Source of the DNA: Stegostoma tigrinum
Taxonomy: Eukaryota
Length of the DNA stretch: 64,000 bases
Assembly (NCBI RefSeq): GCF_030684315.1
Contig: NW_026728611.1
Span: forward strand, 310,001-374,000
Reading direction: 5' to 3'
Within the stretch, counting starts at the first letter, position 1. Every line of letters begins with the position of its first letter. The notes beneath the pieces are model-generated. The model worked only from the letters and a program-made list of their open reading frames with translations, was not told the origin of the DNA and searched no databases. Below, in pieces: positions 5,500 through 61,167 of the stretch. A program made the position numbers and the translations under genes.

Positions 5500-7160
5500 A
5501 CTCAGCACTGTTCATGACTCCTCAGACACTGAAGCAGTCGTGTCAAAATACAACAAGATGTAGACTATATTCAGGCTTGGGTTGACAATTGGCAAGTAAC
5601 ATTTGCGCCACATAAAAGCCAGGCCAATAGTGAAGTGCATCTTGTAAATATTATACACCCTGCTGTTATTGAACGTCAGTTGTGGAAGGAATGGATCATA
5701 ATGGATGTAGTGCCAATAAAACTGGCCGCTTTTTCTTGGGTCGAGCCAAACCTCACTATTGATGCACTCCTTAAGGAAAGTGTGGGATATTCCACCATAC
5801 TCCTGGCCTGCGCCTTGTAAATGATGATCTAGCTTATGGGATTCAGAAGATGAGTTACTCGTTGCAGTGTTCCTAGCCGATGACTTGCTTTTGTATAAAC
5901 TGTGTTGATCTGGTGAGCCCAGTTGACGTTTTGAGTAATTCGAACTCTTAGGATGATAGTGGGGCATTTAGTCACGGTAACACCATTGAATTCATGGGGC
6001 TGTGGTTAGATTGCCTCTTATTGGTGAAGGCCACGGCCTGGCTTTTATCTGGCACAAATGGTACTTGCCACTTGTCAACCCAAGCCTGAGTATGGTCCAC
6101 ATCTTGTTGCAGTTTGACACGACTGCTTCAGTGTCTGAGGAGTCATGAATAGTACTGAATATTATGTAAAAATTGGCAAACATGGTTACCTCTGACTTTA
6201 AGATGGAGAGAACGTCATTAATGAAGCGGATGAAAATGGTTGGGCTGAAGACACTACGCTGAGGAACTCCTGCAGAGACGTCCAGGAGCTGAGATGATTC
6301 ATCTCCAACAGCTACCATTTTCTTCTGACGTGCCATGTATTACACCAATCACCAGGCATTTTGCACCGGATACCTAGTGATTCCGGTTTTGATGGGCACC
6401 TTGATGCTGCACTCACGGTCAAATGCAGCTTTGCTGTCAAAGGCTGTTACACTCACCTAACTTCTGGAATTCAGCTCAGTTGTCTATGTTGAATCAAGCC
6501 TGGAAGGAGGCCAGGAGCTGAGCGACCCTGGCAGAATCCAAACTGTGTGTCACTGAGCAGCTTATTGGTAATACAAGGTAAAATTTAAAAGCAGCATGAT
6601 TTCAAGCTTCTGATTTGCTGTTGTAAACACTGCAGGAAGATGCAACACAAAGGGAGTTGGGCTCTTTCTACGTGAAACACAAAGCTAGCACGTAGGTGCA
6701 GCAAGTAACCTGGAAGACAAATTGAATATTTGCCCTTATTTCAATGGAAAAAAATGGTAAAGGATTTAGCAATGGTAATGTCAAATGTTAATGGTGAGAT
6801 TCTCAATGTTCATGATGGTCATTGTCTGATATTTGTGTGGTACATATGTTGTGCGCTGCATGTTTACCCAAGCTCACATGGAGTCCAGATCGTATTGCAT
6901 TGGGAAATGGACTGCTTCAGTGATGAGTTGCAAATGCTGCTGAACATTGAGCTGTCATCTGCAAACAACCCCAATCCTGATCTTATGATGGAGGGAAGCT
7001 CATTGAAGCAGGTGAAGAATTTTGGGCATATCAAACTCCACTGAGGAACTCCTGCAGTGAAATTCTGAAGCTCAAAAAACTGACTTCCTAAACCTATAAT
7101 CATCTTCCTCTGGTCCAGGTCATGTCTCATGTCAATGGAAAGTTGCCCCTTGATTCTCAT
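5500..7160 (-). mobile_element. Degenerate CR1/L2-group LINE RT fragments (mostly minus strand)
   Basis: SAGVPQRSVFSPTIFIRFINDV...MFAN (5992-6336) and AGVPQW...FNELPSIIRSGLGLFADDS (6864-7160) correspond to the RT GVPQGS and FADD motifs. Confidence 0.7.
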
Positions 7161-8835: not shown

Positions 8836-9968
8836 GGCTGATGGAGAAAATGAAGTCGCATGGGGTCCAGGGTGTGCTCGCTAGATGACTCAAACTGGCT
8901 AGGCATCAGGAGCCAAAGAATAGTAGTGGAATGGAGTTTCTCAAATTCAACACCGGTGACCACTGGTGTTCTACACGGATCTGTGCGGGGACCACTGTTG
9001 TTTGTGATATACGTAAATAATTTGGAGGAAGGTATAGGTGGGCTGATTAGCAAGTTTGCAGATGACACGAAGATTGGTGGAGTAGCAGATAGTGAAGGGG
9101 ACTATCAAACATTACAGCAGAATATAGATAGATTGGAGAGTTGGGCAGATAAATGGCAAATGGAGTTCAATCCAGGCAAATGTGAGGTGATGTGTTTTGG
9201 AAGATCTAATTCACGAACAAATGATACAGTAGATGTAAAAATCCTGGGAAAAATTGATGTACAGAGAGATCTGGGTGTTCAGGTCCATTATTCCGTGAAA
9301 GTGGCAACGCAGTACAATTGAGTGTCAAGAAGGCATACCTTATGCTTTCCTTCATTGGACGGGGTATTGTGTACAAGAGTTGGCAGGTCATGTTACGCTT
9401 GTACAAGACTTTGATTCAGCCACATTAAGAGTACTGTGTACAGTTCTGGCCATAACATTATCAAAAGGATGTGGACGCTTTGGAGAGGGAGCAGAGGAGG
9501 TTCACCAGGATGTTGCCTGTTATGGAGGGCGCTGGCTATGAAGAAAGGTTGAGTAGATTAGGATTATTTTCATTAGAAAGACGGAGATTCAGGGGCGACC
9601 TGATTGAGGTCCAGAAAATGACGAGGGGTACAGTCAAGGTGGATTGCAAGGAACTTGTTTCTCCACAGTGGGGGACTCAATTACTCGGAGTCATGAGTTC
9701 AAAGGAAGAGGAGAAAAGCTTAGGGGAGATATGTGTGGAAAGTTCTTCTGTGGTGGGTGCTGGAAGGCATTGCCAGCGGAGGTGGTAGACGCAGACACGG
9801 CAGTGACTTTTAAGATGTATCTGGACAGGTACATGGATGGGCAGGGAGTAAAGGGATACAGACTCTTTGAAAATAGGTGACAGGTTTAGACAGAGGATCT
9901 CGATCGGTGCAGTCTTGAATGGCTCAAGGGCCTGTTCCTGTGCTGTAATTTTCTTTGTTCTTTGTTCT
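8836..9968 (+). mobile_element. Relatively young 5'-truncated CR1 LINE
   Basis: ORF 8860-9321 has TGVLHGSVRGPLLFVIYVNNL...ISKFADDTKIGG...WQMEFNPGKCEV. Downstream ERRRFRGDLIEV. Ends in a (TTTGTTC)n tail. Absent at the paralogous site near 19170. Confidence 0.92.
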
Positions 9969-32519: not shown

Positions 32520-32978
32520 GGTTCTGGATGTGAGTTTGCTCGCTGAGCTGGAAGTAGTTTTCAGACGTTTCGTCACCATTCTAGGTAACACCATCAGTGA
32601 GCCTCCGACGAAGCGTTGGTGTTATGTCCCGCTTTCTATTTATCTGGTTAGGTTTCCTTTGGTTGGTGATGTCATTTCCTGTTCTTTTTCTCAGGGGATG
32701 GTAGATTGGCTCCAAATCAATGTGTTTGTTGATGGAGTTCCGGTTGGAATGCCATGCTTCGAGGAATTCTCGTGCATGTCTCTGTTTGGCTTGTCCTAGG
32801 ATGGATGTGTTGTCCCAGTCAAAGTGGTGTCCTTCCTTATCTGTATGTACGGATACGAGTGACAGTGGGTCATGTCGTTTTGTGGCTAGTTGGTGTTCAT
32901 GTATCCTGGTGGCTAGCTTTCTGCCAGTTTGTCCAATGTAGTGTTTGTCACAGTTCTTGCAAGGTATTTTGTAGATGA
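32520..32978 (-). mobile_element. PLE (Poseidon-like) 3' fragment with open GIY-YIG domain
   Basis: The minus strand reads IIYKIPCKNCDKHYIGQTGRKLATRIHEHQLATKRHDPLSLVSVHTDKEGHHFDWDNTSILGQAKQRHAREFLEAWHS, followed by a hammerhead-bearing tail. Confidence 0.9.
32561..32600 (-). ncRNA. Minimal hammerhead ribozyme motif (Poseidon-like PLE; A9G variant)
   Basis: UCA-CUGAUGG-U-GUUACC-UAGAAU-GGUGAC-GAAA-C-GUC-UGA: 6-bp stem II and 3-bp stem I. Confidence 0.65.
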
Positions 32979-33226
32979 TCTACCCCTCCCTACCCCCACC
33001 TATACTCTCCTCTCCACCTATCTTTTTTTCTCTCCATCTTCGGTCTGCCTCCCCCTCTCTCCCTATTTATTCCAGAACCCTTACCCCATCCCCCTCTCTG
33101 ATGAAGGGTCTAGGCCCGAAACGTCAGCTTTTGTGCTCCTGAGATGCTGCTTGGCCTGCTGTGTTCATCCAGCCTCACATTTTATTATCTTGGATTCTCC
33201 AGCATCTGCAGTTCCCATTATCACTC
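32979..33226 (+). mobile_element. Neptune-like PLE 3' tail with intact hammerhead motif (33098-33125)
   Basis: Near-identical to the reverse complement of 25090-25310. Contains CTGATGAAGGGTCTAGGCCCGAAACGTC. Confidence 0.9.
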
Positions 33227-41998: not shown

Positions 41999-42906
41999 TT
42001 AATGAGTGAATTTGATTGATCGGTGAATTTGGGTAAAGGGATATTTCAGCACATTCTTCAGCTGTTGCCTGAACTTAGTCTGGGTCACGGCATAAATCAC
42101 GGTGTTTGTGCAGCAACCGAGGAGCTGCAGCATGAAGCCCAATTCCTGCACACAGCGGTCTAGATACACAGACTTATACCCAAACCACCACATCCGGTTC
42201 CACATTGAATACACCATTAACATTGACCACAACAGGACGAAATTGGCCGAGATCACAAACAGAAAAATGATGGATTTTTTTCGATTTCTCATTTCTGTGT
42301 CACACTGACCGTCCCCATTGGTGTGAGCCCGGAGTCTCCTGCGGGCTCTGCTGGTCACTAAAATGTGTCTGACGGTGAAAACATTGAGCAGCAGAATCAG
42401 GAGAAATGGGAGAGCCGGGGTTAGAATGTGGTGGAGGAACTCGATTGTGACCCAGGCACGAGAGTCATAAACACCGTCTGTTACATCACAAAACCAGGGG
42501 GCGTTCACCAGCCAATAGCGAGCTGTGAGCATAAAATACCAGAAAATGTTCTTTAAACAGCTCAGCACAGTCACTGTTCCCAGAACCACAGCCGCCGTTT
42601 TCTCACTGCAATATTTACTTTTCAGCTTCTGGCAATAAATGGCCACAAATCGATCAAAGGTGAAAGTGACGGTGAACCAGACAGAACAGTCAGTGGCTGC
42701 ATAAAGCAGGACGGCGTGGATATTACACACAGGGATGAAGAACAGGAAATAAAACTGTTCCCGATAAACAATGGGAATGTGTCTCAATATCAGATCAAGG
42801 ATAATGAGCAGTAAATCCGCTGCTGCCATGGCCCCCAGGTAACGTCTGACACATGGAGATAATCCACAATCTTTATAAAGCAGGACGTAGATCGTCACTA
42901 CGTTAA
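41999..42906 (-). CDS. Exon 2 of GPR139/GPR142-like class A GPCR (TM1 to C-terminus); spliced product 360 aa
   Basis: A polypyrimidine tract and AG acceptor (TTTGTTTTCTTTCTCCATAG) precede an uninterrupted frame VNVVTIYVLLYKDCGLS. Motifs: YLGAMAAADLL (TM2), PVCN (TM3 Cys), FTFDRFVAI (DRY-like), PWFC (ECL2 Cys), RRRLR (ICL3), CCTNTVIYAVTQTKFRQQL (NPxxY-like plus helix 8). Ends in TAA. Confidence 0.95.
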
Positions 42907-43460
42907 CTATGGAGAAAGAAAACAAATAAATTATACATCAGCCTGGAGGCAAAGCCACCAGTTTGGATGAGGATCCAGTGCGATTTTTAAATGTGTCGCT
43001 GTATTCAGAGATTTATTAAAGATATTGAGGCTGAAATGCAAATGGTAGGTTCTAAATTACTTACAAAAATGTGGCGTAAAGTACAAAAAACACTCCCCCT
43101 CCAAACACACAGGCACTCATCCATAATAACAGGTGGTTTCTCGAGCGTTCCCACATAATTGATCGCTCAATATCATGCAGAAGTCACTTCTTTGCAGTTT
43201 CTAATATGGAGGGTGAAAACATTGCTGTCCCGAAGGAAAATTGAATTAAAATTGAGGTTGGAAATTTTTGTCTTTTGGTCTAAACAGTGGTCGACCCTCA
43301 GTAATGAAGAAATGTAACTCAGGGAAAACTTATTCACCTCTTTAACTACACCGGGGGACTTCGAAACAATGTTTCCTTCCTCTCCCTGGAATGGGATCTC
43401 TTCTTTCAGGACATTATATTTTGTTCAAGTAATTGACCTCCGGGCGTTCACAGGTAATGC

Positions 43461-43940
43461 CAGTCACAGAATGTTTTGGGGAATGTCAGTTTTAGAATTT
43501 TCTAAGGAATGGCGGTTATAGAATAGGCCTGGGAACGCTAGTAATACAATATTCCAGAGACTGACAGTTATAAAATGTTCTGCAGAAAGTCGGGTATAGA
43601 ATGTTCTGGAGAATGTTGGTTATAGAATGTTCCAGAAAATGCCACGTACAAAATGCAATAGAGTCATAAAGATCCATATCACAATGGGCCTTCAGTCCAC
43701 CTGGTCTGATGAAATCCACTCAGCCTCACAGTGTTAATCTCTCATCAAACTCAACTCGACACACTCTCTCTCTCTCTCTCTCTTGCCTTTGCAATAACCC
43801 CATAGGGGCATAGAATCTTCTGGAGAGAGTCAGTTATGGAATGTTCCAGAGAATGCCACTTGTAGAATTTTCTGAATGATGTCGTTTATTGCAGTTTCCA
43901 GATAACGCTCTGGACATTTTGCAGTTTCAGAATAATGTCA
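43461..43940. repeat. 26-bp degenerate minisatellite in the GPCR intron, interrupted near 43645-43805
   Basis: Seven contiguous 26-nt units at 43461-43642 (consensus about CAGTTATAGAATGTTCCAGAGAATGC) and about four more after 43805. Confidence 0.8.
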
Positions 43941-44249
43941 GTCGCCTCATATGTAACACATAAGGGGAATAAGCAGAGCTGTTTTTTTTTTCTTAAATCT
44001 CATCCGAATAACGTCCATCCCGAGTCCAGCCAGCCTTTTAAACCTGCTCCACCATTTAATAAGCTCAGGACTGATCTGATGGTGTCCTGAGATCCATGTC
44101 ACAGATACTTTCAACTATTCAATCCTTTGTCTCGTTGTACAATTAGAGATCCTGCATCGGGAATATTAGGAATTAGGAGCAAAATTAAAGAGCAGGACCT
44201 CAACTGTTATAACCACCTGGTTATTACCTGACCCACGTGTAAATTGGTA

Positions 44250-46635
44250 CAGAAAAGAAAAGACAACTGGGGAAGTAAGGTTGCCACGAAAGGAATGGTG
44301 CAGGAAGGATGGGTTCCTTTTCGAGGGGCACTGGTATTGGTTTTGAGACAGGACGGAGCTGAACCTTTGGGACGGACTGCACCTGAACTGTTCAGCAACC
44401 AGGATATGACTCGAAAGGTGAAATACTGTCGTCGCAAAGACTGGAAACTAGTAGAAGTGGGGAGAAGTAGAAGGAGAGGTCATTAACATTTCCAGAACAA
44501 TGAGATTTACCAGGTACTTGAGATAGCTTTGGAACCAGGATTAACAAGAATTCAAGGAAATTCTACCAATTCATTAGTGACAAAACACTAACAATTGAGA
44601 CAATAAGGCCCGTTAAAGATCAACAAGGCTGTCTATCCATGGAACCACATGAAAAGGGTAAGATACTAAACAAGTGTTTTGCATCCTATATCGTGTGGAG
44701 TAGGATATATAAACTAGAGAATTTGGAGAAATACATTATGATTTCTTGAAATGTGCCAATAGTACAGAGGAGGAGGTGCTGGACGTCTTGAAATGCATAA
44801 AGTTGGGTAAATTCCTCGCAAATGAGCAGTTGTTCCCCAGAACATTGTGGGAATCTGGGGAGGTGAATGTTGGGCCCCTTGCTGAGATATTTGTATCAAC
44901 AATAACCATGGGTAATGTGTTGGAAGAGAAGGGGTTGGTATGTGGTGCTATTATTTAGGAAAGATGGTAAGGAAAAACCAGGGAATTGTGCATTAGTGAA
45001 CCCGACATCAGTGGTGCCTAAATTGTTGGAGGGGACTCCAAGGAACAGGACATATATATGAGGAAAGGTAAGGACAGATCAGAGATTTTCAACATAACTT
45101 GATTGAATATTTTGAGAAGTGACAAAAAATATTGATGATGGCATCAACTGTCTGTACAGACTTCAGCAAGGCATTCAGCAAGATTCTACGTGGTAGACCA
45201 GTTTGCAAGGTTAGATCGCATGGAATCTAGGGGCAACCAGCCACTAGGATATAAAATTGGCTTGAAGGTGGGATGCAGAGCATAATGTTAAGTGTTGACT
45301 TTTTTTGTCTGATTGGAGGCCTATGACCAATGGTGTGTTGCAAGGATCAGTGCTGTGTCCGGTAGTTTTTGTCATTTATATCAATGAGTTAGATATGAAC
45401 ATAGGAGGAAAAGTGAGTAAGTTCACAGATAACTCCAAAATTGTTGGGGTGTCAACAGTGAAGAATAATATCTCAGAGAACAATGGGACCTTGATTAAAT
45501 GGGCTGGTAAGTGGTAGATAAATTTTATTTTAGATAAATGTGAGGTATTGCATATTGAATTCCGAATCAGGGCAGTATTTATAGACTTATTGGTAGGGAT
45601 CTTCAAGGAAATAATGGAATCCCTACAGTGTTCAAAAAGGCCCTTCTGCCCTTTGAGTCCACACTAATACTCCAAAGGACATCCCACCAGGATCACCTGC
45701 ACCATATCGCTGTAAACCTGTATTTTTACTGTAAATCCAGTAATACACATCATTGGAAAAAAATGGCCAATTAACATGGCCAATCCACCCTAACTTGCAC
45801 ATCTTTGGACAGTGGGAGTAGACAAACGAACCCACAGAAAAGCCATGCACGCACAAGAAAAGCGTGCAAACTCCACATAGGCATTCATTTGAGGGTGGAA
45901 CTAAACCTGGACCCCCATTTCCGGGAAGTAGCAAGGCTAACTACTGAAACACCATGTCACCCTGGGGTGAAGGTTCACAGTTCCCTGAAGCTGGAGTCAC
46001 AGGTAGACAGGTTAGTGAAGAAAGCATTTAGTACACTTACCTTTTTTGGTTAGTGCGTTGAAGAGAGGCGTTTGGATGTCATGGGACTGTACAGAACATC
46101 AGTTAGTCCACATTTGAAATACCGCATTTAATTTTGATCTCCTTTCTATAGAAACAATGTTGTTGAACTTGCAAGTATGGAAACATGATTTATAGGGTAT
46201 TGCTGGTGTTAGAGAATTCGAGCGAAAGGGAGAGTTTGAATTGGGTGGGGCCATTATCCCCAGAGCTTTGGAGGATAATGGATGACTATATAGAAGTAAT
46301 AAAATAATGAGAGCATTGGATATGACGAATAGTCAAGGTCTTTTCTGAGGGTAGGAGAAAGCCAAGCTAGAGTGCATAGGTTTAAGTTGAGGGGTAAAGA
46401 CTGAAAAGGGTCCGAAGGTGCAACCTGCTCAGGCAGAGAGCGGTGCATGTACCGAATGAGCTGCGAAATGAAGTGATGGAGGCTGGCATCTGGATTTGTA
46501 CATGAAAAGGAAGGGGTTGGGGCATTTAGGCCAAATGTTGGAAAAGAGGACTAGGTTAATTAGGATACCTGGTTGGCATGGACAGATTGGCAGGAAGGGG
46601 CTGCCTCCGTGCTGCACAGCTGCCTGACTCTATAT
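44250..46635 (+). mobile_element. Degenerate CR1 LINE (RT to 3' end) with a nested SINE
   Basis: SDWRPMTNGVLQGSVLCPVVFVIYINEL...SKFTDNSKI; ESQVDRLVKKAFSTL; CR1 tail near 46630. Confidence 0.75.
45610..45960 (-). mobile_element. HE1-type V-SINE nested in CR1
   Basis: Reverse-complement similarity to 12662-12960. Confidence 0.7.
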
Positions 46636-46654
46636 GAGAAGGTGAACATTCAGT

Positions 46655-46800
46655 TTCTCTCAGTTCTGACGAAGGGTCACCGGACCTGGAACATTGACTC
46701 TGATTTTTGTTCATGAATGCTGCCAGACCTGCTGAGTCTTTCCAACAACTTCAGTTTCTGTTCCTGATTTATAGCATCCATAGCTTTTTTTTCAGTTTTT
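46655..46800 (+). mobile_element. PLE 3' tail with decayed hammerhead (third tail family)
   Basis: CAGTT-CTGACGA-A-GGGTCACCGGACCT-GGAACATT-GACTCTGA. Related copies lie at 47827-47856(+), 41425-41454(-) and 37710-37739(+). Confidence 0.65.
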
Positions 46801-47024
46801 ATTGAACCTCTCTAGCCTGTTACACAGAAAAGGAGGTGGCTATTCAGCCTCTTGGGTCTCTTAAACTGAAACAGGAGGAGGCTATTTGATCTCTCAAGTC
46901 TGCCACAGGGGGCCTTTTAGGTTTTGAGCCTGTTACAATGGAACAGAGGGAGGCCATGTGGGCTCTGGACTCTGTTACAGCGGAAAAGGAGGTGGCCAAG
47001 CAACCTCTGGAGCCGGTTACACAG

Positions 47025-47480
47025 GTTGAAGGGTGTGAGCTATCGGGAGAGGCTGAATAAGTTGGGGCTAGTTGGCCGGGAGCATCGGAGGCTGTAGGAT
47101 GAGCTTAAAACTTTATACAGTCATGAGCGGCATGGATATGGTGAGTAGTCAAAGGCTTTTCCACAAGGTAGGGGAGTCCAAATCTAGATGATACAGGTTT
47201 AAGGTGAGAGGGAAAAGATTTTAAAAAGGACCAAAGGGGCACTTTTTCTTTTCACACAGAGGAGCACTTCTGTATGGATTGAGCTTCAGAGGAAGTGGTG
47301 GAGGATTGTTTCGTTTTCAGGTTTAAAAGACATCTGGAAGGGGATATGACCAGGAAGGGTTTAGAGCGATGCAGGCCAATTGCTGACAAATGGGGCTAGA
47401 TTCATTTGGGATATCTCATCGCCCTGGACAAGTTGGACAGAAGGGCCTGTCAGCACACTGCACGCCTCTATGACTCTACT
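47025..47480 (+). mobile_element. CR1 3' fragment
   Basis: RLNKLGL...EHRRL, ESKSR..RFKVRG and FFFTQR motifs, plus the tail. Confidence 0.7.
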
Positions 47481-49879
47481 ACTGGAAGATGCCATCCAGC
47501 TTCACAAGTCTGTCATACAACTGCACGACCTGTTAGCTCGCTTGCACAATTACTGAGAGAAAAAAAAAATCATAAATACATCGTTCAGATTGTGAGGATG
47601 CTTTTCAGAAACAGAAGAAAGGCTTCCAGTCAATAGAAGCTGTAAGTAATGTGAATGGACCATTCAGTCCCTCAATTCCATTCCATGGGTAAAGCACACA
47701 GCTATTCGAACCTATTGTTCAGGATCAGGAGGAACACGTCTGTTTTCATGATAAAAAAACTAAAAGATTGTGGATGTTGTAAATCAGGAACAAAAGCAGA
47801 AGCTGGTGGAAAAATTCAGAATAATTCTGAAGCAGGGTCACCGGACCTGAAACGTTAACTCTGATTTTCTCTTCACAGATGCTGTCCGACTTGCTGATGT
47901 TTTCACAAAGCTGGCACACAGGGACAGAACAAAGCCATTTAACTGCTCGAGACGATACACAGTTTGATCTGGAGGTCAGTAAGTCTCCAGGATTCTGTTA
48001 CCCAGGAACAGGAGGAGGCAACTCACTCTCCACCACTATGGTACACTGGCAGGCACGGTGATTTGGCTTGTTACAAACAGAAATATATGAATACGTTGCA
48101 GGAGTGGGCCATTCAATCCTGTTCCCCCAGTCAATAATATTCAATGTAATTGTGATTCCTCACCCATTTCCCTCTCTGCAGGTTCTGCGCTGTTTTCTGG
48201 CCATGTTACAGACAGAGACACTGTAACTACAGTCATGACGACTCATCTAGCATGGGTCACCAAAGCATCTGGTCTTCCTGAATGCCCACAGAAGATTAAA
48301 ACACAACCTTGAGGAAACTATCCCGAGCATTTCCATGAACCTCCCAAAAAGAATTAAGTGAAACACTACTCAACGCCAAGTTCGAAGCCTAGTCTGAATC
48401 AATAAGAGTCCGGGGATTCCAGAACAAATGATCAGCTGAGAGAGACTAACACAGACGTTCAGTAGACCGTCACAGAACACGTTACAAAGGTGTACCCCTT
48501 AGCTGTTGAATATCTCTTGTCCAACATGGAGCACCGCGCAGGACACTGGGAAGTGAAAGAAAGTGCAAGCAATCGTTTTTTTTTCAATGTCAGTTTCATA
48601 ATGATGAACTGAATGTTCCAGAGTGAATGACACAATAGGTCAGTGAGGATACGGGACATCAGTTCAAGTTAAACTGGACAATTACTTAATGGGCAACAAG
48701 ATGCAGCAATACGTGGGTAGACAGCAGAATGGGACTCGCCTGGGGATTCAGAATTTGGAGGGTGCAATCGTAAGAATGAGAGCATAAAATAAATATGCTG
48801 CCCGGTCAGCTAAAATTGAATTTAAAAAAAAAATCACATTCACAATCCAGTTCACAGAATCAGCCCAGACACCATAAATTCAGAGAAGGCATCCGTTCAG
48901 CATCGAACACTGTGCAAACCAGGATAGTGTTCGTCTCAATGCAAGCTGGCAATCTGTCCAGTGTGGAACACTGATTACACCAAACCAGTGCATTGACCTA
49001 TAAACCCAAACTAGACATCTACCCACCGCAAGGACCACAGCAGTGCACTGTTCTATAAGCCCAGAGAAGATAACTGTGCAGCATGGGGAGCTGAGCAGAC
49101 CACGGCTTGCATTGAGTTATAAATTTAAACTATGTATCTGTCGCCTTGTCGAGCTGTGCAAACCACCCCAGTGTATTGCTCAGTAACACTGCCGAAGATC
49201 ACAACGTGTAGAGCTGGATGAACACAGCATGCCAAACAGCACCAGAGGAGCAAGAAGGCTGACATTTCAGGCTTAGGCCCTTTTTCATCCAGCTCTACAC
49301 CTTGTGGTCCCAGATTCACCAGCACCTGCAGTTCATACTATCACTGCCTTAGTTCGCTCTCAGCTTGGGGAACCTTGCAGCCCATGCTGGAAGTGACAGG
49401 ATATGAGGCTCCCATCCATTTGCATCTCCATATCCCCAACGTGCCATGACAAAGGGTGCTGTGGATGCGAGCATCACTGCCAGAGAGAGATGCCAGGGAA
49501 TCAGTTTAAATACCAACCAAAACAAGGGGTTCAGAATATACTACAGAGAAAGGAAAACTGAGAGATAATGTCATGGAGGGATGTGTTCACGGGTTTCAGA
49601 ATGCTGAAGTGAAAATATTTTGATAGCACCTTGCAACATGGGCCAATGTTTCCCACAATGACGGGGCTATGGAATTTTGGTGAGTTCAGTTGACGGAGAG
49701 TGTTGGATGACTATTTGTTCCGTAACTTTGAAACTCAGAGTGGCGACAGCAGAACCTTTGACTCATTGGGTTCAACCTTGCAATATTTTGTCTCAGAGTC
49801 ATTTTCATTGAGTTTGACAGGGAACATCTGCATGAGGCCAAGCTAATTTCCTGCTTCTACCTTGTCAATCTCACCTCAT

Positions 49880-50660
49880 TAATTACCTACACCACCCCAT
49901 ATCTTCCCTCTCACTCAGCATCCTCCAGTTTTGCCCCTTCATCATGGCTAGTGGTACTGACCACTGCCTGGATGCTCCTGGATATTCTGTGATTCCTGGC
50001 TCTGGTGCCATCTTTAAAAGGCTAATGGGCACATGCGGTTTTCTTTGTTTGGACCTGTCCTGAACTGTGTACAGTGAGCATAGCAGATAAGGGGCTATTG
50101 CATCACATTTTTTTGACAGGGGCCTGGAGGTCCAAGTGAATGGGTTAGTACAGTGGAAGACCATTCTCTTTCCAGGGGAGGCCATGACACCAGAACATGA
50201 TCCGAGCTTTTTGCCTATTTCAGTCCAGTATCGGCAGGGTGAAGAAATGCCCAGCAATACAGGATAAGCGTGAAACCCCTCCCTGTTCAGTGAGGGTAAG
50301 TGCCACCGTATTCTTTCCACTCTGTCACACTCAATGTACTTCTTTCATAGCATTGACCTTCAAACAAGATTCATGAGCTAACATTCTAAGTGCATGCAGC
50401 ATCATACCTCTCTCCCACCTCCACTGTAACCCCCACACTAATAACACTCCATGGATTCAAAATTCGACTGACTCACTCCAGACACATCAGTATTTACCTC
50501 CTACCTCCAACAACCCTAGGAGCAGGATCACCCACTTCCATCCACCCTTCCACCCTCACGCCCTTTCTGTCATTTCAGGAGAACGAGCGTGTAATAGAGT
50601 AGAAAGTGTGCAGCCGGTTGGTGGAGTGCCCAACATCCGTTCCCTCACAACTTTCTCCCA
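49880..50660. mobile_element. Highly decayed PIF/Harbinger-like DNA transposon remnant
   Basis: The minus strand has LNREGFH and ISLLKM (compare Harbinger transposase NRKGFHS and IGLLKMRF). The plus strand, after an AG acceptor at 50578, has RACNRVESVQPVGGVPNIRSLT (compare the Myb/SANT-like ORF motif HNRRER.QTGGG.P.I..LT). Confidence 0.4.
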
Positions 50661-51470
50661 CCCTGCGCCATATTGACAGGTCCCAAAGAAGCTCAGGATG
50701 ACTTGCGTGGAGGTTCTGGAACATCGATATAGCACCAACTGAGTAAGAAGCAATATTCAGTGATGAACAATTCTCATTTTCAACCTACTGTAAGTTATTT
50801 TTCACTTGGCATAACTTAGATGCTGTGGCCCAGAAAACTGTCCCTCTTTTATGTTGAATCAGTGCAAATGGAATCTCCACGGTCTTGTTGTGTCACAACA
50901 CATCGTCTCCACCACCTCCCAGGAAAGGAACATGATCGAATAGCAAAACACACTGAGTGGGTCGAATCGGCCATTGCTGCTCCAATTTCTTACGCTTTCA
51001 TGATCTTATGCTCGTTGTAATTTATCTACCTAAAAGAGCAGTGGAGGATGAAGTTGATAAATATTTGGTTGAAAAGTCTTAATGGTAAAAAGCGGTATGG
51101 GGGGTTTGAGGTCTATGCCTGTTACTAATTGTTGTATCCTTCAAACTCCAAAGAGATGGTGACATAGTGTGATGTTAACTCATTTAAAAAATAAGGGCTC
51201 GCCTATTTAAGACTAATATAAAGGTATTACCTTTTCTTAGTGTTGTGCTCACCTCCAGGCCAGTGAAGATTTGGTTTTTGAAAATGCTCAAGGCTGAGGC
51301 CAACTGATTTTTGATGGAAAAGGGAATCATTGTTTATGCGAACAAACAGGAAAGGCATGTTCAGACACATTCAGATAACAATATGCTTTTATATGATTCA
51401 ACTCAGACAGGGAGAAATTGCAACCTTCCTGAGAAGCGACGGCTTATTGCCCCCATGTCTGTCTGTCTGC

Positions 51471-51632
51471 NNNNNNNNNNNNNNNNNNNNNNNNNNNNNN
51501 NNNNNNNNNNNNNNNNNNNNNNNNNNNNNNNNNNNNNNNNNNNNNNNNNNNNNNNNNNNNNNNNNNNNNNNNNNNNNNNNNNNNNNNNNNNNNNNNNNNN
51601 NNNNNNNNNNNNNNNNNNNNNNNNNNNNNNNN
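51471..51632. other. Assembly gap (162 N) inside the GPCR intron
   Basis: Run of N flanked by (TGTC)n and (TG)n microsatellite stubs. Confidence 0.99.
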
Positions 51633-53129
51633 ATGTGTGTGAATGGAAACCCCGCTCAGTGATCTTTACTACACGTGGAGGATTCCGGTTGAGGATTCAT
51701 TGAAATTTCCAAACTCCCTGAAGCAAAGGGAATTAAACTAAATCCAACTGGTCCAAGTCGAAATCCAACTGCCTGCAGCTTGTGTGTCCAGAATGACTTC
51801 AGAAGCAGAGTAACATTTGGGACAATCTACTTTTTGCTCGTGTCATGAGTTTAACTTTTTTTTTGACAAAACTCTTCAAACTGATATTCTGCAGTGATTT
51901 TTTTCCCGTTTGTCTTCACGTGTACATATGTGTGTGCATGACTCTGTGTGTTTGCATGTGTGTGTGATTGTAAGTGTGTCTGTATGTGTTTATTTTTATG
52001 TGTTTCAGTATTTATAGAACGATAAATACTGATGTACATATTTTCAATGCTCAAACTATTTGTCATTTAACCTTCCATCACAGCGTCAGTTACGTTGCTT
52101 TGATTATGGCTGAGCTGTTTTTTTAGTAAACGTAAGACTTCTACTCAATTTTTCCTAAACGCTGAACGTAACCCAGTCTGAGACCTGCATAATTAGCCAT
52201 ATCACCAAGTTGGCAACAAATAAAATTTGTGAAGAGTTGGACAAAAAAAGAAAAAAAAAGACCCTCCATTCTCAGTCTAAACAGGGATGAGGAGAAATTC
52301 TCAAAGGGTCATTTGAGTGGGAATTCCCTTCCCCAGAAGTCTGTGGTTCCTGCATGTTTGTATTGATTCAAAGCAGCGTTAGTTAGATATTTGAAAGCAG
52401 AGTGATCCAAGGATAACGAACTACGGATAGGAAGGTGTGACTGAGGCGACAACCGGGTCAGCCACAAGCTTAGTGACTGGTGGAGCAGAGTCAAAGTGTC
52501 TAATGACCCACTCCTGCTCCTCAGCCCTATGTTCCATTCTGATCCTCAAATCTGCCATACTGAAACTGTGGAAGGCTACTTGTTCCAGCTACTTCATGCA
52601 CAGAAACTCCTCAGAACTGCCACACACCATGTGACGCATGTTGGATAATGTTTTTGGTGGAAAATGGGGGCACCAGTGTGAAACACACCCCAACTCTCCT
52701 CACAGACGTTTCCCAGTATCCCTTTATTGGTCGTGGTCTAGACCTTGATTCACTGTGAAAACAGCCGCATACTGGTCACTGACATCACTGACAAAATTCT
52801 CTGGTCTTCCTACCTGCAACATTCCAAAGCATCAATTTCAGGGAAATCAGAACCAATAACTTTTCAAAAGCAGAATTGGAGGAAACAAGATACAGAAGTA
52901 AATCTTTCAGCCCCTCAAGCCTGCCTTCCCCTTCAATGTGATCATGGCTAATCTGATGTTGGCCTCAATTCCTCTTTCCTGCCCACTTCCTTGCAGCTCT
53001 CAAATTTCTGATGTGTCAAAATTTAATCACTTCTTTCCAAACATTTCAGTGACCTATCTCTCTATGTTTTCTGGAATTAAGACGTTCCGACAGTCACTAC
53101 TCTCTGAGAGAAGGAAACAGCCCCCACAC

Positions 53130-56040
53130 ATGCAGCATAACCTATTAACACGAACAAAAGATACAAACACAGTGTAAATGTGATGGACACAGATTGCAAG
53201 GCAGCATTTGACTCGCAGTGGTATCAAGGAAACCAAACAAAATTGGACTAAATAGGAATCAGTATAAACTCTTCAATGGGTGGAGACATTCGTAGCACAG
53301 TGTGGTTGTGAGACATCAATCATCTCAGCCCCGGGGTATCAATGCGGGAGATATTCAAGGTAGCTTCCTCGGCACAAACTTTTTCAGCTGTTTCATCAAT
53401 GCCGTACTCCCATCATAGGATGAGAAATTGGGATGATCACCGAAGATTACACAATGTTTAGCACAACTTGTCAGGCCTCAGTTCCTAAAGCAGCCTGTGT
53501 CAGTGTGCACCAAAAACTGGACAACAGTCAAGCTTGAAATATTAAAGTGTGGGTAACATTCATGTTACAGCACTACTGGACACAGCACATATTCACAGTA
53601 AAAGGAAGACATCGTTCAGCACCTCGAGGTGATTTCACAGGAGTATAAGGAAGTCTTTCAGTCCATTGAGATTTTGGACAAGGGGGACAGCCCATTCAGT
53701 CACTCCTGCCTGTGACATCAGAAAAGAGTGTGTCTTGTCAGCACATCAAAATTTTAAACAGGACTCTGAGGTTGCTGAATCCAGTCCATGAACCTCTTCC
53801 ATGGAATGAGGGAGATGCCATTCAGCCCTTTGAAAGACTGATACATAAATAGGAGGATATTATTGCCGGCCCAACATGATTAACCAATGAACCACAGACT
53901 GCACAGATAGACTGTTACATGTTGCTCCTTCTGGCTGCATGGCTAATGGTGCTTTACCACAATTTGCTGATTGTCAAAAAGGAAAGTGGATCAGTTGTGC
54001 CAAGCCTCAAAGATACATCTGCCATCTCTGAGAATACAAACTGTTTTTCTATATGGAGGTCAGAAACTGGCTGCAATGGCAAACTCTGTCTGACTTAGGG
54101 CGCTGTGGCCCCTGACAGGTTTGTGAACAACATGAAAATCAGTGCAGGATCACACACCGACTGCAAAATAAAGTGGTGAGAGCTCATTGAGAGCCTGGAG
54201 CTCTCTCAACCTGAAGATGAGGTGTCAACTTGGCGAAGCCACCAAAGAGGACTATTTGCATGCCAAACAACATAAGCTGCAAGTGATAGAATGAAGCGAT
54301 TTCGTAGCAAACAGATCAGATCAGAGTCCTACAGCCCTGCTACATCCACTTGTGTATGATGGCGGAGAAACAAACAATGCACTGGAGGAGGAGGCTCCAC
54401 AAATATTCCCGTCCTCAATGATGGGAAAGCCCAGCACCTCAGTGCAAAAAGTAAGGCTGAAGCTTTGGCTGCCACCTTCAGCCAGAAATGCCGAGTGGAT
54501 GATCCATCTCGGATTTCTCCAGAGGTCCAAATTATTACAGATACCAGTCTTCCGCCAAATCTATTCTTTCCAAATGATACCAAGAAATGTTTGGAGACAC
54601 CGAATACTTAGAAGGCTACAGGCCCTGGCAATATCCTGGCATTGTATTGAAGCCTTAAGCTCCAGAACGTGCCACTCCCTAACCAAGTTGTAGCAGGGCA
54701 GTTACAACGCAGGCATCTACCTGACATCAAATAATGTTGTCCAGGTACTTTCTGTACATGAAAAGCAGGACAGCTGCCCCATCAGCCTACTTTCTATCAC
54801 GAGCAAAGTGATGGGTGGTATCATAAATAGTACTATTAAAAACACTTTGTCAACAAAAAGTTGCTCAGTGAAGTCCCGTTTGGGTTTCACTGGGGTCTTT
54901 CAAATTGTGACTACATTAAAGCCTTGGTTCAAACATGGACAAAAGAGCTGAATTCATCAGCTGAAGTGAGAGTAACAGTGCTTGGCTTCAAGGTAACATT
55001 CGACTGAATGTGGCATCAAGGGGCCTGATTAAACATGGAATCAATCAGTATTTGGGTACACTCATGAGTGTTTGGACATATGCCTGGCACAAAGGGCAAT
55101 GGCCACGGTTGTTGGAGGTTAGCCATCGGATCTCCATGACATCACTGCATGAGCTCTGTGGGGTAGTTTCGGACGCCCAACATTCCCTCCAGCATCAGGT
55201 CAGAGGATGTTCATTGATGAATGCATAATGTTCAACACCATTCACAAGTCATTAAAATACCAAAACAGTCCACATTCAAATGCAACAAGATCTGAACAGG
55301 ATCCAGGCTTGGGCTGAAAGATTTGCACCACACAAATGCCAGGCTGTGGCCACCACCAATAAAAGACATTCTAACCACGGCCCCTAGACATTCTGAATCC
55401 TCCTCTGTCAACATTCTGGGAGTTATCATTGATCAGAAATTCAGCTGGACACACCACATAACTGCAGTGGCAACAAAATGTGATGAGAAGTGAGGAATAC
55501 TTTGGCAAGGAACTCACATCCTGGCTCCTCAAAGCCTGTCTACTATCTTCAAGGCACAAGTCAGGAGTGTGACGGAATGCTACCCACTTGCTTGGATGAA
55601 TGCAGCTCCAACAACACTCAAGAAAATTAACATCATCCAAGATACAAGCATTGACTCCTTCCAGCACCAACATTCAGTGGCAGCAGTGCATACTACATGC
55701 AAGATACCCAGCAGAAATTCACCAAAGATTCTCAGATAACACCTTCGAAACCCATGATCATTTCCATCGAGAAGGACAGGGAAGAAGGTATGGAGAAACA
55801 TCACCACATTCGAGCTACCCTTGAAGACACTAATCATCCTGATCTGGAAAGTATATTGCTTATTCCTTCACTGATGCTCGGTCAAATTCCTGGAATTCCC
55901 TCATGAGTGACATTACGATTCAACCCACAGCGGGTAGTGATTCAGGAAGGCAGCTCATCAACAACTTCTCAAGAGACATAAGGGCAATAAATGTTGGCCC
56001 AGCCAGTGATGCCCAATGCACACAAATGAATGCTAAAAGA
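53130..56040 (+). mobile_element. Degenerate CR1/L2-group LINE fragments with a SINE-shared tail
   Basis: PISLLSITSKVM, FGFH.G, LGVIIDQKFSW and IFKAQVRSVTEC motifs. The tail gggcaataaatgttggcccagccagtgatgccc resembles the SINE tails. Confidence 0.7.
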
Positions 56041-59000
56041 AAAAGAAAACAACATGGAGGTTCGGCAGAGAATCGTAAACTATCTGCAGTCATGTATCAA
56101 TGTTTTGTTTCAGACGTGTGACGGTGCATAAACTTCATCTTTCAATGGAATCACCTCTTATCCTCTCACAGTGCTACAAATTAAAGCCTCGCTTTCTACA
56201 CACTCTCCTCATGTCATCGTCATCTCAGGAATCAGTCTGGTGAAACGCCTTTGCATTCTGTCTGTGGCAAAGAATCCGTATTCAGGAGAGAAAATCTGTA
56301 CACGATGCTCAACAAATGCAGAAAGGTGTCTTTAGCCCTATACCTGAATCATTTTGCAATGAAGGACAACAAACAATTTATTGTTTGGATCACTTGCTAA
56401 CCCGCCTGAATTCTGTTAGCAACTCATGACCAAGGGTATTCAGGTCCTTTTCGACAACAGCACTTCTCAACGTCTCACCTTCTAATAAAAACGAAATGAG
56501 AAGGATGGTGTTTTTTGCCTGCATCTAAATCATTTCTTTGCCTTATAAATATCTGTTCTCCAAGCACTGATGCCTGTGATATCATCTGAGTAGTTACCTT
56601 CGGTGTATAGAAGGATCTGGCGCACTGTATTCTCTCCATTATCCAAATTTCAATCCACAAAATACTTTTCCCCTTACCCAAGGATTCTAAATGGGTTCAC
56701 TCACCTGTGTACAACCACATCAAAGGTTTTCTGTAAATTCAAATACACCACTTCCACTTGTTCACATTTGTCGATGTCACAACCAACATTTTGGACAAAC
56801 TCCAGAAGATTTATCAGATAATTTCCCATTCATGAATATACGCTAACTCTACCAACTCATATCATTATTCTCCAATTATCTAGTTGTTACATGAATTACA
56901 AAAAAAACTGATATTTTCTCATAACTGACATCATGTTATCCACTACTTAATTTTCTGTTCACCCTTTTCATCCTGTTTTAGATATTTGTGATCGCAATAG
57001 CTACTTTCCAGTCAGCAGGATCCTTTCCAGAATCTAAAAAGCATTGAAGAGCTTTGATCTCCCTCAATATTCCGGAATGTAGATCATAGAATGATGGAAC
57101 TTACACTACAGAAGGAAGACATTGACCCATCGTGTCTGTATCAACTCCTGAATGAGCAATCCAGCAACTTCAGTGCTCCAGCCGTATATCTGTAGCCCTC
57201 TTAAGGCATCACACATCTGGTGCATCAACATATCAATGCTCAATAGAATGAGTTTTTTGAATACTTCCTCTTTATTCTTCCTAATTTCCTACATGTCCTC
57301 ATTTTTACCAGTCACCTTGTTCCCTAATATTACTGGAACGTTTTGCACTGCTCCCTCTGTGGAGACAGAGCCAACGTGTTCACCTCACTGGACAGAGATG
57401 ACATCACCTCATGAATACATCAGAGGACGGCTCTCTGGGACACGATGGGCATGTAACTCAATTCCGCCCAGAAATTTCCAGAATAAAACCAGTTCACTTC
57501 ATGGCCAGTGTCAGCACAGTCCTCCCCCTGGTGTGTGACTACAGGTTATACTGAAAGTGGTGACACAACTCTGGGACCTCTTCATTGCTGAATAAAACTT
57601 GCTTCACGCTTTGCAACTGAAATAGGGACAACATTGGAAAACATTCCATGAATCTCCAGAGAGGAGAGCGCAGTGCCCTGATACTCCCTGTTTACAGAGC
57701 TTCCCTTCAATGCAGCCTCTGTCCCATTTGTTAGCCATATTGAAGTCCCAGATACACTGTAAATGCAGCAACCATATCTCTCACGGAGTGGAGGCACCAG
57801 ACCTTCAGGTCTCCCGAAATGAATGCAGCAGCTGACAACACACACGCAAGAAACTATGAAAATAACATTCCCTGGCTTTCCAATGACAGGCGAAAGTCAA
57901 ATTTATGCATTCATGGTGCACCCATTCAGTGTTGAAAATGCCTTCCTCTCCTCATTTTCTTTTCCTGGATGATAAACTGTTACATTTTTACGCAGTCGCA
58001 GTGACCTGAAATATTAACAGTTCCACTCTCCGTAAAAGTAGTTTATAATACAATTGCACATTTTTTCTGTACCTCAGTCACAATTACAGTAAAACCACTA
58101 TTACCGGTGAAGATGGTTGGACATGCTGGAAGGAGGCATTCTAGCGACATTATGTGCAGACTGTTAATCCAAGGACCCAGGTATATGACCCTGACTCAGG
58201 ATTTGAATCCTGCCACTACAGATAGTTGAATTTGAATTCAACAAAATATCTGGCATTATGTATTCATTGAAACTGTGAATGCATCATCGCTCGTCAGAGA
58301 GAAAGAAAAAAAAAACTGGCCCACCGCTGTACTTCATGGAAAGAAATCAGCCATCTTCATCTGGTCTGGCCTTCAGTGACTGCAGAGCTAAAGCAATGTG
58401 ATTGGCTCTCAGTTGCCATCTGAAATGGGCAAGACAGCCATTCAGTTATATCAGTCACTGCAAGGTCTCATAGAAATGAACAGAATGGCTCCAGGCATTG
58501 ACACACGTGGACAGCAGTGGTTGAAGAAAGCAGCCCACTGACACCTTCTGGAGGGGAAGCAGGAAACGGCAGTAATTTCTAGCCCAGCCAACGATGATCA
58601 TGTCCCATTAATGAATAAAGGAAGATGATCACACTCAGGGAAAAGAAACAAAGGGGACATAACTCACTTTAAACACAGACTTGGACATATACCTGCACAG
58701 GAATGATATTCAGGAATATGGGAAAAGGCCAAAAATAAACAAGATTAGCATCACATTTTATTTCTATTCCAGCTGATCATCAACAGTGTCCCTAATTGCT
58801 TCTTTTTTCTCTCTCTTACTCCACGTACTCAACACACTCCTTCTCCCCTTCAAAACAAACATCTCTGTCACCAGATTTAATCACATTATTTCCCAGCATC
58901 TTTCAGTTCCAATGTGTGGCCAGTGGATTAAAATGCAAACTCTGTTCTTCTCTTGGCAGGAACTTCAAACCTGTTCAGTTTCCTCACCATTTGTTTTTCC

Positions 59001-59792
59001 TTTTTGTTTCATGGAATTTCATGGGATTTTGACATTATTGGAAAGGGCCAGCATTTGTTCACCATCATTAATTGTTCTTGCCTGTGAGGCCAATTCTCAA
59101 GGCAGTATAGAGCCGAGCACATTATTATGGGTCTGAGGTCACTCTTAGTCCAGATCAGGTGGTAATGTTAGATTTCTTTACCAAAGGATATTCGTAAAAC
59201 AGATAGGTTTTTAGACAAAATTCTGTTGATTTTATGGTTGCTGTTAGTGACTTCTTTAATTACTCCAGTTCCTGTCATTTGAATTTATGGTCTGCCATCA
59301 GCTGTGAATTTGGAACAGTGTTGTTGATATAAATTACTGTCCATCAACATTACTACTCTGACACAATCTCCGTATTGTAAAGTAAATTCAGAGACAAGAA
59401 CAAGTTTCTGGCCAATTATTTGTAACTGGAAGACTGGCTGGTGGAGACCTGAAGACGTGAAGTCTTTACGATACCAAGGCGTAGTCAATGGTTTATTCAA
59501 CAGCAACAATGACACAGAGGTGGAGCCTGTGGATATTATCGAGCTGGTCGTCGACAGGTTTGCTGATGGAGACAACAATGAGGGATAAATCAGTTCAGGG
59601 CAAAAGGGGTCCTCCAGGTTGTGAACACTCGTGTCTGTAAAGGAAGGGTCTGAAATTCATGGAAATGAGCGGTGTTTGCAATTGAAACAAAAGAAAATAG
59701 ATTCTGCCTTTGCCCAAGTGCGGAAAACGGAAATAGCAATGAAGTTCAACATGTTTTATGGAATTAATGAATGGTTAGAGACAGTGACTTAC

Positions 59793-59967
59793 CAGGAACA
59801 CCAACAATAGCGAGGAGGGGATAGTAACCCACTTGAATAATCAGCAGTAGACCGTGTATTCGCCATGATAACAGGGCCCAAGGATTTGAAAGGTATAAAA
59901 GACCCTCGAATAAACTCCTGTCCGTTATTGTAACATTCCCGTCTATTATTCTCAGATTCAGATTCAT
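59793..59967 (-). CDS. Exon 1 of GPR139/GPR142-like class A GPCR (N-terminus and first half of TM1)
   Basis: Translates as MNLNLRIIDGNVTITDRS...IIQVGYYPLLAIVGVP+G, followed by a canonical donor GTAAGT (59792-59787). The exon is 175 nt (58 codons + 1), matching the phase-1 start of exon 2. It has an NVT N-glycosylation sequon, and YYPLLAIVGVP is typical of TM1 in GPR139-like receptors. Confidence 0.88.
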
Positions 59968-60059
59968 TGTTGGAACATTCCAGTCGATTGCTCTCAGATC
60001 CTGAACTCTCCGCGCCGTCTCTCTGCAGCTGCTGATCCCTGTCAGTGCTGTAGCTGATG

Positions 60060-60075
60060 CTCACGCTTATACTAT
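60060..60075 (-). promoter_or_regulatory. Candidate TATA-like box of the GPCR gene
   Basis: TATAAG on the minus strand, about 100 nt upstream of the exon 1 ATG, in non-repetitive sequence. Position-based inference only. Confidence 0.35.
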
Positions 60076-61167
60076 GGGAGAACACACTGAATGGGGCCCC
60101 TGAGGAGTAGGAGAAGGAAAGCCTCCTGTGACACAGCTGGAATCCATGGAGACTGACATCAATCACAGTCACTGAACAAACAGTTCTAGTTAACTCCTTT
60201 AATTCGAGAAACTTCAGATCAAAATAATAACCAAACTTGTTTGGGTGACTTAATCTCTGTCTCTTGGCCTTATCTCCCATTACACATTGCTCTAGCGAAG
60301 TCAGTTATGTGGGAGCATAATGGATGATTTCTTTTCGCTGGTTAAATGATTCTACAGTGCTGTCCATATACAATGGTGTACCCATCTCCCCCCTCAAAAA
60401 AGTCAAGAGGTTGTTATTGTGCTGGTCTTTCCTTCACCAAAACAAGCGCCAACCAACTGATTGCCACTGGGCATAGCTGCCATGACCTTACAGAGGAAGT
60501 GTGGATTTGGCTGGACATTCCTGCCATTTATCTAAGAAGGCATTTTTTTTCAACACACAATACACTTTAGCTTTCTTTTTAAAATACACTGAAAAGCATC
60601 TTATTGAAGTTTATTTGCTTTAAAGTTTTTAACAAATTGGTTTTGTAACTTGAATCCAAAGCCAGGCTTGGCATGAACAATGATCCTGTCCATTTAAACC
60701 CACGGATTAATGACAGAATGAACATGATGCTGGTTAGGAGACAGAAAGGAATGAAGCAGTGGCGGTGGAGACTGGAGGGGAGTACAATGATCTCGCCCAG
60801 TCACCAATTTTTGACCAGCACTCTCTTTAGGAGGCAGAATGAAGTGTGATGCAGAGGAAATAGACAGACTACATTTGGGAGATGAAATGCCCAAAGACAT
60901 TGTGAACAGAGCAGGATAATTTTAAATGTGTCGTCGGGAAATATATTTTATATGAAGACTGCTTTATAACAAGGTATGCTTGTTGATAACATTGGTCATA
61001 TCTGGACGGGGTATTCGAAATTAAATATAGATACAGCTATTAGATGTAGGGGTACAGGATGATTTCTGGACAATAACAGTAGAAATATAGCTCATTCGGA
61101 CCTCCTGCAGTAATGAAGAGGTGTGTTACCACTATTTTTCCTGTAGTTATTCTGTGACATGTATTAC

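Follow-up and report, generated by a model that had tools for sequence, protein, structure and literature searches.

A two-exon class A receptor gene of the shark Stegostoma tigrinum belongs to a family of about 1,900 loci, probably a recognition repertoire and possibly one serving a chemical sense

We analyzed a 64,000-nucleotide (nt) stretch of the 3.2-Gb genome of the shark Stegostoma tigrinum (contig NW_026728611.1, positions 310,001 to 374,000; hereafter the window), which carries on its minus strand a two-exon gene for a class A G protein-coupled receptor (GPCR). An initial annotation had proposed that a distant first exon at 59793-59967 splices to 42906 and that the receptor belongs to a GPR139-like family expanded in cartilaginous fishes. 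The gene has the following parts (TM, transmembrane helix).

59793..59967, minus strand: coding exon 1, the N-terminus and most of TM1, 58 codons plus 1 nt, with a phase-1 GT donor
42907..59792, minus strand: intron, 16,886 nt, GT-AG, mostly repeats, containing a 162-nt stretch of N
41999..42906, minus strand: coding exon 2, from the end of TM1 to the stop codon, 301 codons; Pfam 7tm_1, E 3.7e-16

The 175-nt exon 1 (59967-59793) ends in phase 1 with GGTGTTCCTG, directly followed by the donor GTAAGT, and a polypyrimidine tract and AG lie upstream of 42906. Joined in phase, the two exons encode 360 amino acids with a single terminal stop; the alternative +1 and -1 registers contain 13 and 22 stops, so that only the proposed register is open. 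Among the 11 closest paralogous exon-1 loci, 10 have the same reading frame and donor, and the product aligns without gaps over residues 1-360 to two whale-shark RefSeq models (P0003 and P0006) at 81% identity. Exons 1 and 2 lie 17.4-18.2 kb apart in nine sister copies on other contigs, compared with 17.4 kb in the window by the same measure, and on contig C9 a same-strand exon 2 lies within 60 kb of 21 of 25 exon-1 motifs, at a median distance of 20.8 kb. Taken together, the in-phase frame, the recurrent exon spacing and the gapless whale-shark alignment establish that the two-exon gene with its distant first exon is real, as initially proposed.

The TTG-initiated 308-residue open reading frame (ORF) reported in the initial annotation was located at 42925-41999; it lacks TM1 and was rejected as a real protein. 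An alternative first exon inside the N stretch is superfluous because exon 1 and its spacing recur in the nine sister copies, and the long intron is ordinary within the receptor family and was dismissed as a special feature. When eight family proteins were used as tblastn queries, no further family exon 1 or exon 2 was found in the readable window. Presumed-RNA contigs of relatives cover exon 2, and several extend into the intron; neither an exon 1-exon 2 joint nor an exon-1-like loose end was among the alignments listed for the whole gene and the acceptor (211 joints and 3,720 + 3 loose ends lie outside those listed), a result that is neutral on splicing and expression.

The Pfam match identifies the product as a class A GPCR. 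The predicted model of its gapless whale-shark homolog (pLDDT, a predicted local confidence score, 91) has seven TM helices and helix 8, and in a VIA comparison it superposed on the top class A structure with a Z of 27.7 and a root-mean-square deviation of 2.1 over 257 residues. The best Foldseek match was GPR139, by a narrow margin, and GPR139 was not among the top 50 VIA rows, all of which fall within 2 Z units. An earlier model was poor (pLDDT 57), and its fold search was left unused.

We compared the product with 86 distinct intact exon-2 copies, 58 of them sampled by position and 28 by similarity, which also formed the set for the selection analysis. The product carries a D143-R144-F145 motif; C119 is present in 86/86 and C198 in 85/86 copies, consistent with a disulfide between TM3 and extracellular loop 2, and the N-x-x-x-Y motif of TM7 is nearly fixed (N326 in 86/86, Y330 in 85/86). 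All of the motifs quoted in the initial annotation occur in the product, but two differ from their family forms. Y149 of DRFVAIY is private to the window copy (cysteine in 84/86), and DRFVAIY was therefore rejected as a family motif; V328 of NTVIY is atypical (alanine in 79/86), the family form being NTAIY. The Trp/Tyr-rich loop sequences that it quoted are likewise present, but they occupy the most variable positions of the family rather than being a fixed feature. The deep pocket is almost fixed in the 58 position-sampled copies (L126 58/58, H217 57/58, W285 56/58, L288 56/58, E313 58/58, F316 57/58; T130-T137 lie within the pattern that selected the copies and were disregarded for conservation). 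In the same copies, 8 and 15 different residues occur at rim positions 295 and 309.

The family to which the gene belongs is large. All 131 scored genomic matches to exon 2 fall at 89-100% identity. An exact subfamily 24-mer from TM3 has 911 matches in the genome (control, 0), a motif of exon 1 plus its donor has 1,109 (control, 0), and the looser family motif W-x-T-x-x-F-T-x-D-R has 1,884 (control, 20). There are ~1,900 related receptor-gene loci in this shark genome, and the window gene is an ordinary member of an extraordinary family; the lineage-specific expansion put forward in the initial annotation was borne out on a scale that it had underestimated. The 120 best of 1,608 related protein clusters are all from sharks, the nearest being whale, zebra and bamboo sharks (up to 90% identity). 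Wherever a family member is assigned to a species, that species is a shark, ray or skate, and many separate subfamilies are retained across these groups.

The first 100 listed 24-mer sites fall on four large contigs: within 3.3 Mb of the start of one (108 Mb), within 5.6 Mb of the start of another (104 Mb), within 5.2 Mb of the end of a third (96 Mb) and distally on a fourth (91 Mb). This places the sampled arrays at chromosome ends; more distant subfamilies are spread over numerous contigs 10-32 Mb in length. The window gene and an oppositely oriented neighboring exon 1 share a block of at least 149 kb that recurs at 96-99% identity on 10 contigs (C624, C154, C529, C834, C824, C613, C485, C443, C432 and C104). 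Since this is too many for alleles, the unit of duplication must be large. Copies were sampled by position at 98 of these first 100 sites. Exon 2 is intact in 58 of the 98, encoding 58 different proteins and preceded by an AG acceptor in every case, which suggests ~540 intact copies of exon 2 in this subfamily, exon 2 alone being considered. Among the broken copies, insertions of 1-2 nt recur at one A-run close to where the third intracellular loop ends (exon-2 position ~625; L136, L144, L148, L149, L150 and L071).

GPR139 and GPR142 are class A orphan receptors activated by L-Trp and L-Phe (PDB 7vug, 9m42). A profile of the shark family has human GPR139 as its best PDB match, at an E of only 1.3e-12, and a single-sequence PDB search with exon 2 returned no match. 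The majority of the top 120 relatives are listed in RefSeq as "probable GPR139", an automatic name under which the family is hidden and mislabeled. The genome's own GPR142 is single-copy (C26, L159), 92% identical to white-shark GPR142 and matched to human GPR139 at an E of 2e-91; like the window gene it has two exons and a phase-1 intron at the end of TM1, with an AG acceptor at the homologous position, but the two proteins are only 25% identical. No second close match to a GPR142 query was found among 147 scored of 2,648 candidates.

In the main tree (33 rows, LG+G4), the elasmobranch family forms one clade (98/97) that is sister to a salamander gene (100/100), with two apparently single-copy clades of non-mammalian vertebrates and amphioxus genes as the next neighbors and GPR142 apart. 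This tree carries a long-branch warning at its outgroup, and GPR142 serves as a proxy for true GPR139, which is absent from its rows. A quick tree of 66 rows agrees with it except that the position of the salamander gene is left open; three mis-extracted rows, three redundant rows and one outgroup were dropped from the tree set. Grouping the family with GPR142 was rejected by the approximately unbiased (AU) test (p = 3e-5, or p 0.027 with the salamander gene added). The two neighboring clades, P0236 (coelacanth, fish, amphibian and reptile) and P0264, each have their own shark member; identity to these nearest relatives is 26-31%. They are likely the GPR210A and GPR210B subtypes described as GPR139/142-related orphans of coelacanth, gar and fishes in PMC6504862, in the available text of which the word shark is absent. 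Its nearest homologs and a shared intron position place the shark family in the GPR139/142-related superfamily. The two neighboring clades appear single-copy, whereas the elasmobranch clade is massively expanded.

The residues that bind amino acids in GPR139 separate the family further. In the available text of PMC8807744, R6x51 is critical and found only in GPR139/142, and that of PMC5430874 gives F3x33, H5x43, W6x48 and N7x38 as binding residues of GPR139. When positions were mapped through a HMMER alignment, residue 6x51 was leucine in 56 of the 58 copies, phenylalanine in one, isoleucine in one and arginine in none; N7x38 is replaced by phenylalanine in 57 of 58, the acidic E3x32 and E3x29 of TM3 are also replaced, and P6x50 has become a variable T/M/I. 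H5x43, W6x48 and the acidic 7x35 are kept, and F3x33 is mostly tyrosine (Y/F). Since GPR139 itself lacks the proline of NPxxY, with phenylalanine there (PMC8807744, available text) as against threonine in the family, this deviation is inherited. These replacements weaken the suggestion of an amino-acid receptor made in the initial annotation. Its statement that the gene is not the 1:1 GPR139 ortholog is supported both by the weak PDB profile match and by the separation from GPR142 (as proxy) in the tree; judged by sequence, the family is neither GPR139 nor GPR142. Clusters in the ESM Atlas are GPR139-named and FMRFamide-receptor-like, and the available text of PMC12208981 places invertebrate peptide receptors in the wider clade. 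For true GPR139, two back-translated motifs gave no match in the genome and a third matched GPR142 only, which does not establish its absence. GPR139 may have been lost or may be absent from the assembly, and the name "GPR139" would then be wrong wherever it is used here.

We next asked where the copies differ, using three segments that face the outside of the cell. Their limits were drawn from hydropathy and predicted helices and fixed after the per-site table had been inspected.

42728..42772, minus strand: extracellular loop 1 (104-118 in codon numbers), with sites 107 and 114 under positive selection
42458..42532, minus strand: extracellular loop 2, codons 184-208, a predicted beta-hairpin with the conserved C198; 10 positively selected sites
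42149..42202, minus strand: codons 294-311, covering the top of TM6, loop 3 and the beginning of TM7, with sites 295, 298, 299, 303 and 309 under positive selection

The ratio of nonsynonymous to synonymous substitution (dN/dS), counted by parsimony on a tree of the 86 genes, was 1.56 for the loops (58 codons) and 0.56 for the remaining 243 codons, and a tree-free pairwise estimate from 58 genes gave 1.50 and 0.57. This comparison had been suggested with the initial annotation, and it puts the loops above 1 and the remainder at ~0.56. Codon models rejected neutrality for the pooled loops (twice the log-likelihood difference, 2dL, 432). When each loop was given its own tree, M2a against M1a yielded 2dL values of 94, 188 and 92, with omega2 at 3.4-7.9 and 17 positively selected sites with a posterior >0.95 across the three loops, while a 115-codon core used as a control gave a 2dL of 3.6 (p 0.17). 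Placed by residue number on the whale-shark homolog model, the selected sites fall in loop 1, in the hairpin formed by loop 2, in the final turns of TM6 and where TM7 begins. Changes private to single copies are no denser in the loops (0.0048 per site) than elsewhere (0.0053), so the loops do not behave as mutation hot spots. Positive selection acts on the three extracellular loops and not on the deep pocket or core.

The loops also appear to move between copies, as seen at one patch in the window gene.

42453..42521, minus strand: likely gene-conversion patch in loop 2, at least 69 nt, matching L022 and L024 at 14/14 informative sites, unlike the sister copies

Over 3 kb of flank the window copy is 99.9% identical to its sisters L002 and L003. 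It differs from them at 1-2 of 1,498 intron nt and 1 of 1,497 3' nt, but at 13 of 75 loop-2 nt (Fisher p 1e-18). An 84-nt loop-2 segment is instead exactly that of L022 and L024, which have 45-47 differences from the window copy elsewhere in the exon. Seven of the eight sisters besides L006, distant ones included, share or nearly share the alternative loop 2, and the window copy is therefore the likely recipient. At least 20 other loci match the surrounding 181 nt at 98-99% identity, so a donor cannot be named. Gene conversion is the most likely origin of the patch. In loop 3, the sisters L006, L008, L009 and L011 differ at codons 306-310 by short clustered patches, which suggests further small conversions.

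Across the 58 sampled genes, pairwise distances in one loop are uncorrelated with those in another (-0.01 to -0.02), whereas 30 clonal simulations on the same tree with the same site rates gave loop-loop correlations of 0.32-0.47, with a minimum of 0.08. The histories of the loops are uncoupled from each other. The same genes hold 49, 58 and 55 distinct peptides for loops 1, 2 and 3, and synonymous diversity in the loops is 2.3 times that of the core, a pattern that long-lived loop variants on a homogenized core would produce.

These observations would fit a scheme in which copies multiply through large segmental duplications at chromosome ends and die by frameshift or stop, short conversion tracts carry whole loops between copies to create new combinations of loops 1, 2 and 3, and selection favors new rims above a constant deep pocket and a constant G-protein face. 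A receptor whose rim varies above a fixed deep pocket may be better suited to peptide-sized ligands than to free amino acids. On this evidence it is probable that the family is a functional ligand-recognition repertoire, likely an overlooked one that detects many different outside molecules. Expression in a chemosensory tissue, such as that of smell, falls slightly short of an even chance in our judgment, and what is left after this, the immune or barrier role and the mostly passenger copies considered below goes to other tissues. The reading as a whole, in which the window encodes an intact class A receptor and the ~1,900-locus family would be a recognition repertoire with diversifying and exchanged loops, most likely serving a chemical sense, is one that we hold to be evenly balanced. 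Only tentatively do we suggest its strongest form, an undescribed main chemosensory family of sharks and rays with at least 1,000 GPR139-related GPCR genes that would gain their specificities by swapping three loops through conversion.

We favor a chemical sense because the known olfactory repertoire of sharks is small. The available text of PMC10869828 gives cartilaginous fishes the smallest olfactory receptor repertoire of the vertebrate groups (mean 44 genes), with 43.8 (20-62) known genes despite many olfactory neurons, and a small known chemoreceptor repertoire in sharks also emerges from passages of PMC11979771 and PMC10116579. According to passages of the latter, shark olfactory neurons are microvillous and the V2R co-receptor v2r1 labels catshark neurons at just "moderate frequency". 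We did not find the expansion described in the literature, of which supplements and subscription journals may mention the family; the term GPR139 has no match in the available text of four shark genome papers (PMC10620051, PMC11979771, PMC8455134 and PMC7677710). If the family is expressed in the nose, it would resolve the paradox of few receptors and many olfactory neurons and add a new family of vertebrate chemoreceptors, and if the chemosensory reading is true, the textbook figure of ~40 shark smell receptors would be more than tenfold too low.

The family resembles the OR, V1R/ORA, TAAR, V2R and formyl-peptide receptors in being clustered GPCRs with birth-and-death turnover, many pseudogenes, a variable ligand face and a conserved signaling face. 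It differs from the vertebrate chemoreceptors in stemming from another GPCR lineage, in having an intron inside the coding region, and in that variation within the subfamily lies on the extracellular rim rather than in the deep TM pocket. The peptide-binding exons of the major histocompatibility complex and the variant surface glycoproteins of trypanosomes are repertoires diversified by segmental gene conversion. In these, as here, short donor tracts shift a variable surface among stable copies, and arrays lie at chromosome ends; the shark family consists of germline GPCRs, however, and somatic diversification is not claimed. The loop-swapping pattern provides naturally occurring receptor pairs distinguished by one loop alone, ideal material for mapping ligand specificity.

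Several observations weigh against a large functional repertoire in the nose. Nothing in the analysis links the family to the nose. In the 500 nt upstream of 31 exon-1 loci, non-independent paralogs mostly of one subfamily, O/E-type motifs of smell genes were not enriched (2 against 2.6 expected; 8 against 9.6 when relaxed), and in a catshark library of brain and olfactory tissue no GPCR appears among the 50 most specific genes in the available text of PMC11979771, a weak point because V2Rs are also absent. The ~1,900 loci include pseudogenes and perhaps haplotype duplicates (L004 and L005 encode the same protein), and exon 2 is broken in 40 of the 98 position-sampled copies. Private changes in intact copies have a dN/dS of ~1 (0.92 in loops, 1.07 in the rest), with a nonsynonymous-to-synonymous ratio only modestly below that of broken copies (187:76 against 255:67, p 0.026). 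Present-day constraint on single copies is weak, and from the near-neutral changes and the broken copies it follows that many intact copies, perhaps including the window copy with its C149Y change, may be drifting. Site-model tests can be inflated by recombination, and the M1a/M2a code was home-made, used FastTree trees and had two class weights stuck at their starting ratio. Finally, assembly or polishing may have created the loop-2 patch as a chimera. In the same upstream sequences, homeodomain sites were slightly raised (58 against 45), and Fox-type (57 against 22) and TGATTGAT (10 against 2) motifs were enriched, a weak signal since the promoters are related.

An immune role is rather unlikely but merits consideration: the receptors could be carried by leukocytes or by gill, gut or skin and, like formyl-peptide receptors, respond to peptides of microbes or parasites; alternatively, the loops could be escaping binding by pathogen proteins. 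Positive selection confined to an exposed rim, conversion-driven loop shuffling, chromosome-end arrays and fast turnover are equally typical of host-pathogen arms races, and the missing olfactory promoter signature agrees with this possibility. On the other hand, ETS (32 against 37), RUNX (6 against 14) and GATA (48 against 45) motifs are not enriched upstream, and none of the 45 other window ORFs scanned with Pfam is an immune gene. To our knowledge, vertebrate GPCR families of at least 1,000 genes are all chemosensory, which also counts against it. Expression in immune tissue would make the family a germline recognition repertoire unusually large for a GPCR.

We consider it improbable that the expansion is mostly non-adaptive, riding on unstable duplications at chromosome ends with a small functional core and most copies, the window gene included, as passengers. 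The block repeated on 10 contigs, the share of broken copies with near-neutral private changes and the retroelement fragments around the gene are what such an expansion might leave; the core dN/dS of 0.56 and the loop omega2 of 3.4-7.9, however, require selection over the history of the subfamily, and many subfamilies have been kept across sharks, rays and skates. That the gene is a GPR139 or GPR142 ortholog or recent duplicate sensing L-Trp and L-Phe is very improbable and already largely refuted, since the RefSeq names, the PDB profile match, the common intron position and the retained H5x43 and W6x48 are set against the low identity to the genome's own GPR142, the AU test and the replaced binding residues.

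Further features flank the start of the gene.

59926..60009, minus strand: a 42-nt (14-codon) unit present twice around the start codon; an N-V-T glycosylation sequon is encoded by the copy that follows the ATG
60060..60200, minus strand: subfamily-conserved upstream block, a candidate proximal promoter, with a TATA-like TATAAG at 60066-60071

The number of 42-nt units varies among paralogs from ~1 to 9 (loci compared: L049, L051, L053-L057, L059, L060, L189, L195 and L197), and 31 loci carry 0-5 sequons; the repeat may form a stalk of variable length. Upstream of the start, ~250 nt are conserved within the subfamily.

Elsewhere in the window no further protein-coding gene was detected, and the Pfam scan of the 45 other ORFs gave three matches, all to retroelement domains.

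5995-6339, 8854-9318 and 32584-32979: reverse-transcriptase and GIY-YIG retroelement fragments (Pfam)

The GIY-YIG fragments are presumably Penelope-like.

Among 120 listed relatives of P0236, none is mammalian. Sharks also have two more apparently single-copy GPR139-like orphans (L168 at C4:23.73 Mb, P0293, P0290) with orthologs in bony vertebrates, one of which is annotated as a TMEM183A isoform in two records.

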